From a virus: DNA of 64,000 bases. Shown piece by piece: positions 1,774 through 37,641 of this stretch (within the stretch, counting starts at the first letter, position 1; the number at the start of each line of letters is the position of its first letter). Under the pieces are notes generated by a model. It had not been told where the DNA came from, did not search any database, and saw only the letters and a list, made by a program, of their open reading frames with translations. The translations under genes and the position numbers were made by a program. The DNA lies in IMG/VR virus record IMGVR_UViG_3300045012_000066, positions 32,001 to 96,000 of that record; one strand, 5' to 3'.

Positions 1774-2004
1774 GGCAAGGCAGGCGAGGCGTGGTCGGGT
1801 CCGGCGCGGCCAAGCGCGGTATGGCATGGCACGGCAAGGCAGGTATGGCAAGGTGTGGCAAGGTGTGGTGCGGTGTGGTGCGGTGCGGCAGGCTGGGCGT
1901 GGTCGGGTAAGGTCTGGCGGGGCGCGGTCGGGCACGGCACGGCAGGTGTGGCTAGGCATGGCAATGCCCGCTGCGGCTGGGTGTGGTCGGGCAAGGCGTG
2001 GCAA
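1774..2004 (+). repeat. GGY-NN pentamer array 1 (candidate guide-RNA array)
   Basis: 43 pentamers (40 start GGC/GGT, then a variable dinucleotide) plus four 4-nt GGCA separators at 1779, 1838, 1887 and 1941. Confidence 0.92.
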
Positions 2005-2010
2005 GTAAGC

Positions 2011-2043
2011 CGGGAGGGACGTTTTTTAAAACCGTCTCTCCCG
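2011..2043 (+). terminator. Stem-loop directly after array 1
   Basis: CGGGAGGGACG (2011-2021) pairs with CGTCTCTCCCG (2033-2043), one G-U pair, A/T-rich loop. Confidence 0.6.
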
Positions 2044-2140
2044 AAAACCTCAACCCCTTAAACGGTGGCATTAAACGCGGCCCTTCTTACGACAAGCTCG
2101 TAGCGGGCGCATATTTAGACGCCACAATGAGGAAAACAAA

Positions 2141-2845
2141 ATGGCTGTTAATAATCCGAAACTGAAGCCGACAGTGGATGTAACGCAAGTAAACACTGCC
2201 GAATTAAAATCCAAAATTCCACCTGCCTCAAAAGTCATCATGATCAAGCCTCCAAGGCTGGAGGTTGTGGAATTTCCCGTGCGGGGCACAGCACCACTGG
2301 TGGTCCATCGCATGTCGGCAAAACTTAAGGCGCAGTTGAAGGCTATCGCCGAAGGTACAGCGTCGAAGGGTGCGCGAAAGGTGCGTGAACCCATGGACTC
2401 AGACGCTCTTTACATGCAAGCCCGCTACATCAGCAAGGAAGGTTGGGACGGGTTTCATGCAGGGGGAATTCGCAACGCGCTGATTTCAGCTTGCCGCTTA
2501 GTGAATTACAAGATGACGCTAGCGAAGCTCAGCCTCTTTGTGATTGCTGATGGATGGGACGCAATTGAGCCGCAGCATCCACTTGTTCGCATTTATGGCG
2601 AGCCTGTTAAGCAGGAGGATGTGGCTCGCGTGGAAACCGGTCAGCCGTATATCGCTGTGCGACCGGCGTACTACAACTGGAGTGCCAAAATTAAGCTCCA
2701 GTATGACGCCGACCAGTTCAGCGTGAACGATGTAGCAAACCTCCTTCACCGTGTCGGTAAACAGGTGGGAATCTGCGAGGGCCGTCCTGACTCAAAGCGC
2801 TCTCCCGGAGTGGGCTGGGGAACGTTCGAGCTTGTAGAGGACTAG
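2141..2845 (+). CDS. RAMP/Cas7-like RNA-binding protein (Vipr-like), flanked by GGY-NN arrays
   Basis: N-terminal strand EFPVRGTAPLVVH, helix GGIRNALISAC and C-terminal Gly-rich loop GKQVGICEGRPDSKRSPGVGWGTFELV follow the RAMP motif order; GAGGA SD. Confidence 0.75.
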   Translation: MAVNNPKLKPTVDVTQVNTAELKSKIPPASKVIMIKPPRLEVVEFPVRGTAPLVVHRMSAKLKAQLKAIAEGTASKGARKVREPMDSDALYMQARYISKEGWDGFHAGGIRNALISACRLVNYKMTLAKLSLFVIADGWDAIEPQHPLVRIYGEPVKQEDVARVETGQPYIAVRPAYYNWSAKIKLQYDADQFSVNDVANLLHRVGKQVGICEGRPDSKRSPGVGWGTFELVED

Positions 2846-2853
2846 GTTTCACT

Positions 2854-2887
2854 GGGCGGCTACTGTCTCAAAGTAGCCGCCCTTCTT
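2854..2887 (+). terminator. Stem-loop between the RAMP-like gene and array 2
   Basis: Perfect 11-bp stem GGGCGGCTACT / AGTAGCCGCCC, 7-nt loop, followed by TTCTT. Confidence 0.65.
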
Positions 2888-2891
2888 AAGA

Positions 2892-3119
2892 GGCGTAGCA
2901 GGCGCGGCATGGCGCGGTTCGGTATGACGCGGTCGGGCGCGGCAAGGCAAGGCAAGGCAGGCGTGGCGTGGCAGGTACGGTACGGCGTGGCTGGGTTTGG
3001 CCGGGTACGGTGCGGCGCGGCTTGGCATGGCAGGGCAAGGCTTGGCAAGGTTCGACGGGGCGGGGCCCGGTCTGGCGCGGCAGGTACGGCAAGGTGAGGG
3101 TAAGGCCACGGCGAGGCGT
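2892..3119 (+). repeat. GGY-NN pentamer array 2 (candidate guide-RNA array)
   Basis: Phased GGY-NN pentamers with AGCA/GGCA separators at 2897, 2956, 2970 and 3079; degenerates just before the next SD. Confidence 0.9.
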
Positions 3120-34412: not shown

Positions 34413-35169
34413 TTTTTCTCTCCTGTAAAAGGCGAATGCGCCTATTTCAACCCTCATGCAAAGGACTGAAGTAGACACACGGTAGAGGCTAAAATCGAAG
34501 CTCTACCCGTGCCCTCTCTCCAAACTCTTATGTTTGGTTGCCCGTCTCACGTTCGCTTGCTTCGCTAGGTCTGAGGTACTTCGCCGGTCACCATCAAGCT
34601 TTCCTGTCCCTGAATCGTCGCGCCCGTCTCTATGGACTCCAGCGCTGCTGCTCGATTCAAAGCTGCTTGTCTATGCTGCCTCACGGCAGTAGATGACCCG
34701 TCCGTTTCGCTCTAACTCTCGTGGATCGGGATACGCGCCATTACAGCGCCTTTGGCCGGTGCAAACGTTGATTGCCGGTTTCAACTCATTCCGCCCGGTA
34801 ACTCTGCTGACCCCTTTCTCGCCGCCCCTCGTTAGGGACTGAAAGCTCAAGGACTCCATTTCAGCTTCGGGCTATGTTGTCAAAGATTCGGTGGTCCATC
34901 TGCGCCACTAGCGCCCCCACCATGCCCGCCCCTTGGGGCGAACTCACTAAAACAACTATACACAAGAACTCGTCAGTATGCGTACACTTGTACATAATTA
35001 TTTTCGCCTCTTTATTCAAGCATTTGGAAGGTTTTCCACAGGGTGTGCCGTTGACACCTCATTACCGAGTAGGCAAACCCGCCCCCACCTGTATCCATAT
35101 ATGGGGGAAAAGTTCCCACGGTACACCGGGACAGGATTACACTAGGAATGCATTTCAGAACTGGACTCG

Positions 35170-35199
35170 CCCCCAAGCCAAACCTTGGGGGTATTTTTT
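35170..35199 (+). terminator. Intrinsic terminator in the divergent intergenic region
   Basis: 8-bp stem CCCCCAAG/CTTGGGGG followed by TATTTTTT. Confidence 0.6.
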
Positions 35200-35926
35200 G
35201 CCCGCCGCACCTCTCCACGCGCCAGCCCGGATTAAAATCACCCTCTCAGGTACAGGGCGCAAGGAGTCATGCTTCCGGTAAGCCTAGAGACGCGGTCTCT
35301 CCGCGTCGCGGGGGTGCTCCCCGCCCGCCATGCTCCAAGCATTCGCCCGCTTGCCACGCCACGCGCTACACTGCGCCCGCCATGCCTCCGCCGCCCACCC
35401 GCCTACTCAATAGCCCGCCCGTGCGACGCCGCACAGTGCCAAGCTTTCGCTGGATGCAGGAAAGGCTTTTCGCCTCTTTCGGAGCTTCCTTTTTTTCGCG
35501 CCGCGTTTTAAAAAATTCGCGCTTGTCCAAACTGCTTTTCCTGTAGTCCACGCGTGTTCCCTGTCCCGCCAACTGTCCACCTGTCCGTCCACGCTTCGCC
35601 CGCTCAAACCCCTATAAACATTGGCTAAAATCCGATTCTCTAGATTCGGACTCCAGCCCAGCGCTACCCGCCAGCGCCCGCCCTCGATCCCGCATCTCGC
35701 CTGTCCATGTCCTCCTTGGAGGTTGTCCCGGACCCCCTGTGACGCCGTTGGCGTCAACGCCTTTTCGCCTCTCACCTTGACGCACGTAAACTCGGAGGCG
35801 CAGCTTTGGCGCAGAAAAAAAATGGCGGGAATTTTTTGGCGGAGATTTGGATAATTCCATACGAAAATTTAGCTAGAAAAATCTGTGGATTTCTACTCGC
35901 TACAAACGTCTAAGGTTACGGCGAGC

Positions 35927-35948
35927 TAGGCGCAGCTTAGGCGCAGCT
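35927..35948 (+). promoter_or_regulatory. Tandem 11-bp direct repeat TAGGCGCAGCT x2
   Basis: Exact duplication; the motif recurs in other intergenic regions. Confidence 0.7.
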
Positions 35949-36197
35949 TGTGTGATTCGTGCTATTTACGCAGAGTGGGAGGAGTGGTAGGGGTAGTGGT
36001 GGGAGTAGTAGTAGAACCGGATACAGGGGTAGCGAGATACTTCGCCGGTCAGTTTTCCCCGACTTCCGGGAGGCAGAAAGGGGTGTGTTAGCGACCCGAG
36101 AGGTGCTGCGACACCCTGATCTATGGAAACGGGGAAGCGAAAGTTCTCTACTACCCCTACTACTACCACTACTCCAAGATGGGCCGGGAGGGCAAGT

Positions 36198-37151
36198 ATG
36201 AAGCACACGCGGGCGGTGGATCAGAAATACCGGCTGCTGCGCGAAGAGGCGCGGTACAGGATGTGGGAAGGGAAGCGCCAGATGCAGGCGGTATACGAGG
36301 CCGAGATCGACGATCTGGTGAAACAGCGGCAGGCGGAGATCGACGCGTTGCCGGATTCCCCGGAGCGGGTAAGGAGCGACCCCCATCGCGAGGATCGGAC
36401 GCAGCGCTATTGCGCGACCTGCGGCGGCGCGTTTCTACTGGCTACGGTCAGGAACGCCAAGCTGCTTCAGCGCGTGATTCACCTTAGGCGGACGGATACG
36501 GACAGCGAGGAAGGCTGGCACTATAAGCTGGCCGCGCTGCGCCACCCGCGCAAGAAGTACTGCTGCTATCCCTGTCAGGTGGGCCGGGAAGATGGGCACA
36601 ACGCCCCTTGCTGTTTGCTGTCGGAGTTGGAAGCGGACCTGAAATACTACGAGGTGGTTGAGGGGATCGAGGTGGATCGTGAAGCGGCTGTGGCGGAGAC
36701 TGTTTCCAAGCTGGGTGGCGGAGATCAGGCGGGAGAGCCGCCAGCGCACGCTGGATGAATTGAAGGCGTTTTCCACCCATCAGCCGATTGAGGCCGGGGT
36801 GGGCGTGGATGTGGAGCGGGCCTATTGGCTGATGAGGCTGGTGATGCGGCAGGAGTGGGTAAAGCGGGCGGGACGATGACCAACAAGGTGCGTGGCGCGA
36901 AACCACGACCGGCTCTTCAACAGGTAGCCAACGATTCTATTACCGACGCCGAGTGGCTGGTGGCGCTTCTGAAGAATAGCGGCTACTCGCCCTGCCGCGC
37001 CATCCACGCGCTGCTGAGCGCCATTGTCGTGATCACCATCGGGCAGAAGCAGGAAGAGATACTCAGCGAGCCGCTGGATGAACTGGTGGGGCATTTTGCC
37101 GCGCTGCGCGAATACGAGATCGAACACGGGCCGAAACAACGAGTGCAATGA
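36198..37151 (+). other. Hypothetical CDSs (36198-36758 Cys-rich, 36876-37151)
   Basis: ORFs with SD-like sites; no Nop-domain motifs. Confidence 0.55.
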
Positions 37152-37178
37152 TGGAAATGCTTGACAGCCATAAATACA

Positions 37179-37641
37179 GCGAGTGCCAAAACAAGAGAGT
37201 GAACCATCCGGTGTGAGAGTACCAAAGATATGGAGTGAACCAATCGTTGTGAGAGTACCGGAGAACGTGAGTGAACCAAAATAGAAGCGAGTACCAGAGG
37301 TCTTGAGTGAACCAAAGAAAGAGAGCGTGCCACTAAGTATGCGTGAACCAACTCCAGCAAGAGTGCCAAGGCGGGGGAGTGAACCGATAAGCATGAGCGT
37401 ACCAAGAACCGGGAGTGAACCAGAATACTTGCGAGTGCCAAAGGGTTTGAGTGAACCACGGTAGATGCGAGCACCAGTAAAGTGGAGTGAGCCAAGTCAA
37501 GTGTGAGCACCAACTGCTCAAGAGCGAACCAGATCAGGAGCGAGTGCCAATTTAAGTGTGTGAACCATCCGTGTTGTGAGTGCCACGGTAGTGGAGTGAA
37601 CCCAGTAAGAGATGAGAGTGCCAAGGATAGCGAGTGAACCA
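37179..37641 (+). repeat. TIGR-like dual-spacer array, about 13 units of 36 nt
   Basis: Alternating 10-nt motifs GAGTGAACCA (13x, 37197...37632) and GNGAGYRCCA-like (13x, 37179...37614) separated by unique 8-10-nt spacers; period 36. Confidence 0.85.

Follow-up and report, generated by a model that had tools for sequence, protein, structure and literature searches.

A soil phage carries a VIPR locus and a distal TIGR array as two unrelated RNA-guided systems

We analysed a 64,000-nucleotide (nt) window of a soil phage genome (bases 32001–96000 of IMG/VR record IMGVR_UViG_3300045012_000066; 122,463 bp, about 122 kb, rated 100% complete), which holds a locus of GGY-NN repeat arrays around a RAMP gene at 1774–3119 and a dual-repeat TIGR array at 37179–37641; positions refer to the window unless marked "genome". 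From their sequences we identify the first as a VIPR (Viral Interference Programmable Repeat) locus with staggered vrRNA arrays, and the second as one array of a TIGR-TasA system encoded elsewhere in the same genome. VIPR, founded on Escherichia phage SUSP1, consists of a phage RAMP protein (Vipr) and vrRNAs of alternating GGY and NN, the NN bases of which pair with double-stranded DNA (dsDNA) in a "one-nucleotide-skip" register and repress transcription (bioRxiv 10.64898/2026.04.26.720920), and cryo-electron microscopy places one Vipr protomer on each repeat (10.64898/2026.04.26.720927). Dual-repeat TIGR arrays have a 36-nt unit, a box C of sequence CCA and a variable part of 16–18 nt (Faure et al. 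2025, PMC12045711), and TasA acts as a repressor (bioRxiv 10.64898/2026.09.09.750476). The original prediction of two unrelated programmable-RNA architectures in one phage agrees with this assignment to a RAMP filament with a GGY/NN code and a Nop-type protein with dual 8-nt spacers, as does the predicted separation of about 35 kb (34–36 kb measured between the GGY-NN arrays and the window TIGR array). Both arrays belong to published systems, the known mechanisms of which are left unchanged.

The VIPR locus lies in an accessory cassette on the plus strand (1–3154, beginning about 231 bp upstream of the window). An upstream staggered vrRNA array (array A; 1774–2004, plus strand, 44 GGY-NN units) and a downstream one (array B; 2892–3119, plus strand, 43 units) flank vipr (2141–2845, plus strand), a gene for a 234-aa single-RRM RAMP of the Csm3/Cas7 type, so that the RAMP-associated GGY-NN arrays of the original prediction are real. 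A GGY-chain parser found 86% of the spacings in array A and 81% of those in array B to be exactly 5 nt; the sole long GGY chain that it returned elsewhere in the genome is a 6-nt coding repeat for Gly/Ser. Across all 122,463 bp, the Fourier signal of G with a 5-nt period peaks solely at the two arrays. Array A is divided into segments of 9–12 units by 4-nt GGCA units, each a −1 register slip in which two pentamers share one G, and the arrays have no 40-nt tails between guides. Among 76 non-redundant arrays of the clade, GGCA made up 224 of the 288 slip units (78%) and 8–12 units was the commonest distance between slips; the clade's NN entropy was 3.84 of 4 bits, with GGC, GGT or GGA opening 88% of units. 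The slips, their spacing and the NN entropy agree with the "staggered arrays", with 1-nt overlaps, of the VIPR paper (bioRxiv 10.64898/2026.04.26.720920).

Two hairpins on the plus strand were read from the sequence of the locus. One, at 2012–2042 (GGGAGGGACG / CGTCTCTCCC stem with a T/A-rich loop), is possibly the 3′ end or terminator of array A; the terminator scan made no call there. The other, at 2854–2887 (GGGCGGCTAC / GTAGCCGCCC, then TTCTT), stands between vipr and array B, which stops at the ribosome-binding site of an exonuclease gene (ATG at 3132). Downstream of the cassette are recombination genes, namely those for the exonuclease, an SbcC-like ATPase and an HNH protein, and the other open reading frames (ORFs) of the cassette, at 3–677, 674–1075 and 1062–1772, gave no informative matches in family and homologue searches.

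We then examined Vipr itself. Foldseek searches with an alignment-based AF2 model (pLDDT 74.6) returned Cas7-type RAMPs as all top matches (Csm3, Csm5, Cmr4, type VII Cas7 and Cas7-11 domains), and VIA-align superposed the model on Csm3 with a Z of 10.4 and a root-mean-square deviation of 3.3 Å over about 150 residues across the whole Csm3 chain; as modelled, Vipr has a Csm3/Cas7-type RAMP fold. Its family comprises more than 2778 members at about 60–67% identity, with phrog_4652 as the sole library match, and no Pfam model matches ORF 2141–2845. The gene is intact and retains the family's invariant residues, with a C-terminal loop, GRPDSKRSPGVGWG, that is invariant in the family. A tblastn search of Vipr against phages did not reach SUSP1 (founding locus NC_028808, vipr at 28474–29061 with arrays beside it), but hhalign aligned the family profile with SUSP1 Vipr end to end (157 columns, E 6.8e-5, probability 63%), pairing His56 of the window protein with the guanine-reading His17 (G1) of SUSP1 and E213-G214-R-P with D177-W178-R-P, such that the acidic G-loop residue is kept. 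These alignments suggest a remote and weak, but full-length, kinship, and this remoteness fits the seven divergent types described in the VIPR paper (bioRxiv 10.64898/2026.04.26.720920).

The association between gene and arrays was evaluated in 80 viral loci encoding Vipr homologues. The strongest period-5 G signal fell within about 1.5 kb of vipr, on the gene strand, in nearly all of them, and when, as a strict threshold, at least 10 of 12 in-phase pentamers had to begin with GG, arrays were called at 47 of the 80 loci on the gene strand versus none of the 80 on the opposite strand; the phages bearing GGY arrays span 34% to 67% G+C. Our assignment of 1774–3119 to VIPR follows from the RAMP fold, the remote SUSP1 homology, the gene-strand arrays beside homologues, and the NN entropy with its GGCA grammar. 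The RAMP association and the VIPR papers led us to set aside several other explanations for the GGY arrays: G-quadruplex or R-loop origin elements, Chi-like arrays, a TRAP- or CsrB-like protein sponge, and a pentamer-coded protein.

In a blastn search, window 1892–2120 (the end of array A and its hairpin) matched about 27 Mycobacterium phages at about 70% identity, including Donkeykong, Quico, Florinda and Saal, at sites near 31–37 kb in their genomes. Vipr homologues also occur in five Gordonia phage records and in Cyanophage Cy-LDV1. Judging from these matches, such cultured Mycobacterium, Gordonia and cyanobacterial phages probably carry VIPR arrays that are annotated as "hypothetical" or not at all.

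The second element, the dual-repeat TIGR array at 37179–37641 (plus strand), holds 26 repeats and 25 spacers, or about 13 tigRNA units of 36 nt. Its 10-nt repeats alternate between GAGTGAACCA and GMGAGYRCCA; 23 of the 26 close with CCA (box C) and all 26 have CC at positions 8–9, while a box D "UG" is clear solely in the GAGUGAACCA repeat. Intervals are 18 nt in 23 of 25 cases (period 36 in TRF), and spacers are 8 nt in 22 of 25, with two of 9–10 nt. The array sits inside a plus-strand operon, preceded by three small ORFs that follow the divergent region at 35.8–36.1 kb, and its final repeat abuts an ATG at 37642; the rightward block that contains it runs to the large terminase subunit at 49.4 kb. 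A minus-strand ORF over the array (36983–37642) was rejected: it translates to repeat junk and overlaps a plus-strand gene, so we regard the array as non-coding.

The same two repeat cores occur 48 times at genome 6.7–8.8 kb and 62 times at genome 9.7–10.6 kb, and are otherwise clustered only in the window array. These two regions are the main TIGR arrays (genome 6711–8736 and 9666–10639), with the same repeats as the window array, and between them lies tasA (genome 8758–9651), a 297-aa ORF. TasA has more than 4350 homologues, PF02371 as its sole Pfam match, and matches to solved Tas chains (9mty_A, E 8e-15; TasH, E 1e-6); the whole system comprises about 157 spacers in three arrays. We assign it to TIGR on the basis of these Tas-chain matches, the repeats common to all three arrays, turnover confined to spacers, and the dual-repeat features. 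Because both of its repeats are identical to those of the tasA-flanking arrays, the window array, at 59 kb from tasA and neither adjacent to nor within it, is by its repeats a third, distal array of this system and not an orphan. The original prediction of a TIGR-like array was therefore correct as to the array, but not in treating it as a separate system.

Early or middle transcription of both loci, as originally predicted, is plausible. No sigma-70-like promoter was found near the VIPR locus or the distal TIGR array, no promoter motif common to the three TIGR arrays was found, and the distal array has no terminator or recognisable promoter of its own. The TIGR spacers (genome 6711–10639 and window 37179–37641) are purine-rich (A 36%, G 28%, C 15%), and the 8-mers GACAACCG, GGAAAAGT, TAGGTGGT, AAGAGTGA and GAAATCCA recur within the arrays.

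A sibling phage, G045 (121,079 bp with direct terminal repeats; about 97% identical over most of its length, with a 100% identical TasA), allows the two systems to be viewed separately. G045 keeps TIGR-TasA without Vipr, in a search in which positive controls were matched. Homology stops at genome 31753/31768 and resumes at genome 35155 (window 3155), and in place of the VIPR-bearing stretch G045 has an unrelated cassette of 3.35 kb (about 3.4 kb), which contains three other ORFs but shows no period-5 signal. The ORFs of this replacement cassette (G045:C1:19976-23323) are 359, 367 and 321 aa long, the 367-aa product being ParB-like by eye; the blocks swapped between the two phages also include genome 26.6–30.2, 51.5–55.0 and 108.5–114.6 kb, among several.

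The distal array is present at the same place in G045, with identical repeats and flanks 96–99% identical. Ten of its 25 spacers are common to both phages, with one unit lost and one gained, and 53 of 132 are common in the main arrays, so that the common fraction is 40% in distal and main arrays alike. Such spacer-specific turnover with fixed repeats argues against decay of the distal array, and argues that it is in use and evolving like the main arrays. We considered that the distal array might be a decaying duplicate, or that VIPR might have been disabled by loss of vap (phrog_15946), the clade's usual downstream gene, found at 62 of the 80 loci. The 59-kb distance from tasA, the lack of a terminator and recognisable promoter of its own, and the missing vap would fit such an inactive remnant, which we nevertheless judge highly improbable: decay would affect repeats and spacers alike, whereas the distal array equals the main arrays both in repeat conservation (23 of 26 with CCA) and in spacer turnover, vipr is intact with the family's invariant residues, and the published vap1 only enhanced protection that VIPR conferred without it.

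We next compared the guides with candidate targets. Every adjacent TIGR spacer pair, in both strand arrangements and with gaps of 0–2, was compared with the phage's own genome, G045, 160 loci (913 kb) of Vipr/TasA phages, and G091 (IMGVR_UViG_3300009986_000002); for TIGR 16-mers in viral collections, about 20 chance matches per pattern are expected. For VIPR, seven segments of 9–12 units were searched under the published xNN (1-nt-skip) rule. Against the phage's own genome, no TIGR pair matched at 0 or 1 mismatch, and two-mismatch matches (40) equalled the controls (37 reversed, 28–37 shuffled); the best vrRNA self-matches, at 13–16 NN bases, were at or below shuffled-control means. Neither guide set exceeded reversed or shuffled controls in G045 or in the 913 kb of other-phage Vipr/TasA loci, and the sole exact TIGR match in G045 fell within that phage's own array. 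The original prediction had offered self-regulation. In such a scheme the phage would time its programme by having one or both guide sets silence genes of its own; published assays show both effectors acting as repressors, neither has a nuclease, and the arrays are located inside operons, but the self-matches just described do not bear this out and the VIPR paper likewise reports no self-targeting (bioRxiv 10.64898/2026.04.26.720920), so that we consider this reading extremely unlikely.

When four 18-base vrRNA cores were searched against viral contigs, they gave 0, 1, 0 and 1 independent matches. One of these involves an 11-unit segment of array B (2974–3028, plus strand), of which 21 of 22 NN bases match position 33278 of G091, an unrelated 49.5-kb contig, under the 1-nt-skip code. 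The site lies in a prohead-protease gene (phrog_193, PF25310), with every skipped base at codon position 3 (wobble); the best of 30 shuffled controls reached 16, and the chance estimate for such a match is roughly 0.03–0.1 over the four guides scanned. The second match (18/18 in the core, 18/24 with flanks) did not extend beyond the core and is compatible with chance. Within G091, no other vrRNA matches rose above controls, and neither did the 140 TIGR spacer pairs (11 real versus 16 control at two mismatches). Convergence of both arrays on shared targets, as originally proposed, was accordingly not observed, since the only candidate VIPR target is matched by no TIGR guide above control.

To place the pairing in a wider context, we surveyed co-occurrence in viral records. 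A Tas protein was found in 1 of 44 VIPR-bearing records (records of at least 21 kb), that of phage G028, and GGY arrays in 1 of 46 TasA-bearing records, that of phage G047; this Vipr clade was in none of the 46 TasA-bearing records. G028 combines a Vipr of the same clade with a different Tas clade (a 357-aa Tas-like protein) and a 4-unit, 36-nt array about 11 kb from vipr, which follows the Tas-like gene and has repeats of its own, unlike those of the present phage (G028:C1:26523-29996, excerpt positions 2220–2370; repeats AGCGTGCCA / TAGAAAACCA). In G047, a complete 61.6-kb phage, GGY arrays stand on either side of a gene whose product has 31% identity with SUSP1 Vipr (E 1e-31). About 1 kb downstream of these vrRNAs come a TIGR array and a tasA 69% identical to that of the present phage. 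The two systems are physically adjacent there (excerpt G047:C1:41000-50000, positions 2440–6109): a type-II-like vipr (2572–3207) with vrRNAs bearing hairpin tails on both sides is followed by two genes (one HNH), the TIGR array (about 4620–5170) and tasA. The two systems thus seldom co-occur and are not passed on as a pair, yet the combination has appeared at least three times (this phage, G028 and G047). With one positive per sample and no measured base rate, co-occurrence is not distinguishable from chance, and together with the absence of VIPR from the 97%-identical G045 this does not sustain a conserved partnership.

These counts bear on the functional coupling of the original prediction, in which the two systems would be co-selected for layered silencing of the same rival elements. 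Co-occurrence does recur in three unrelated combinations, and both effectors are published as repressors; even so, we regard coupling as unlikely, because G045 keeps TIGR-TasA without VIPR, 43 of 44 VIPR records and 45 of 46 TasA records are without the other system, and the candidate VIPR target contig is not matched by TIGR pairs above control. It is likewise doubtful, in our estimate, that selection in some phages favours VIPR and TIGR-Tas jointly, as a single "RNA-guided silencing island", a reading that draws on the three independent pairings, one of them with its loci about 1 kb apart. If it did, the 2-of-3 gapped code and the dual 8-mers would complement each other against the same competitor class, and distal TIGR arrays served in trans would reach beyond the tas locus.

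We consider it probable instead that the phage carries two independent, nuclease-free, RNA-guided dsDNA-binding silencers, each acquired as a separate accessory module and most likely directed at different competing mobile elements. Their independence is suggested by G045, which is without VIPR, by the rarity of co-occurrence, and by neither system matching the other's loci among the 160 relatives. By analogy with the literature on both systems, from which RNA processing, ribonucleoprotein assembly and repression are taken, the two staggered arrays would be cut into vrRNAs, on each of which Vipr would polymerise with one protomer to a GGY-NN unit. The filament would grip the GGY bases and expose the NN bases; these would recognise two of every three bases of the target DNA (xNN register), and transcription would be blocked. 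The distal TIGR array would be transcribed within its operon and cut into 36-nt tigRNAs, a TasA dimer encoded 59 kb away would load these in trans, and each tigRNA would recognise a 16-bp site, with one of its two 8-nt spacers pairing to either strand. In light of the published work, it is plausible that the phage uses the systems to compete with separate rivals.

Several findings weigh against this interpretation. The three independent co-occurrences, one with adjacent loci, leave room for a functional link. This TasA is missed by a genome search with the Pfam Nop model. The search for TIGR targets in the phage's own genome, G045, the 160 loci and G091 gave none, and the G091 site, the sole candidate VIPR target by sequence match, is statistically modest. 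Finally, a hidden Markov model built from the clade gene finds no vap (phrog_15946) in this cassette at E ≤ 10; the gene is "typically" present in VIPR loci and vap1 enhances protection (bioRxiv 10.64898/2026.04.26.720920), and VIPR activity here, without it, may differ or be reduced.

Other repeats were noted in the window. The divergent intergenic region at 35920–36180 contains two copies of a direct repeat, TAGGCGCAGCT, and a purine-rich, GGAGTAGTGGTA-like tract (35973–36014), the complement of which (CTACTACCACTA-like) recurs at 36148–36173; this long-range inverted repeat, where the rightward operon starts, could fold into a large hairpin. At 46100–46368, a long 6/18/54-nt tandem repeat (GGTTCAGGCTCT-like) within overlapping ORFs of both strands probably encodes a Gly/Ser-rich linker and has no relation to the pentamer arrays. 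No tRNAs were found in the window, and an Rfam scan of it gave no family at gathering score. Genes run rightward over 1–9.3 kb, leftward over 9.3–35.8 kb, and rightward again from 36.1 kb.

Both systems were first described in 2025–2026, and the VIPR and TIGR-TasA papers cited here do not mention each other; the value of the present phage is as material to test how two RNA-guided silencers coexist. Together with G045 it forms a natural pair, with VIPR present or absent on an otherwise 97%-identical TIGR-TasA background. The distal array, at 59 kb from tasA, shows the same mode of evolution as the main arrays; this implies trans loading, and surveys restricted to the surroundings of tas would miss guides such as these. 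The phage and its clade also add members, with a clear GGCA|GG junction grammar, to the little-characterised "staggered" vrRNA architecture. We view the distal TIGR array served in trans, the presence/absence of VIPR between siblings, and the rare but recurrent co-residence as modest additions.

Compared with type III Csm3/Cmr4 (Cas7) proteins, Vipr shares the fold (Z about 10 over the whole Csm3 chain), the glycine-rich loop and the thumb, and the binding of one protomer per fixed-length RNA segment; its register, however, is 5 nt instead of 6 nt, its guide bases are non-contiguous, and the VIPR locus, unlike type III CRISPR-Cas, has no CRISPR array or other cas genes. The window locus resembles SUSP1 VIPR in its phage single-RRM RAMP, its GGY/NN pentamer arrays on both sides of the gene and on its strand, hypervariable NN, 9–12 units per guide, no self-targets above controls, and a candidate target that lies in coding sequence of a rival phage and has its skipped bases at wobble positions. 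It differs in having only remote sequence similarity (hhalign E 6.8e-5, no tblastn match), staggered arrays with GGCA|GG 1-nt-overlap junctions (the vrRNAs of SUSP1 are separate, about 100 nt long, and each carries a 40-nt pseudoknot tail), and no recognisable vap gene in the cassette. The TIGR system, in turn, is like Flavonifractor plautii FpTIGR and other dual-repeat TIGR-TasA systems (PMC12045711), with 36-nt units, two alternating 10-nt CCA-ending repeats, two 8-nt spacers (together a variable part of 16 nt, like that of SpTIGR), and a nuclease-less, phage-encoded Tas. Whereas published TIGR arrays lie upstream of, downstream of, flanking or inside tas, and typically end in a terminator, the window array stands 59 kb away in another operon, without a terminal terminator, and belongs to a system that is unusually large at about 157 spacers in three arrays.

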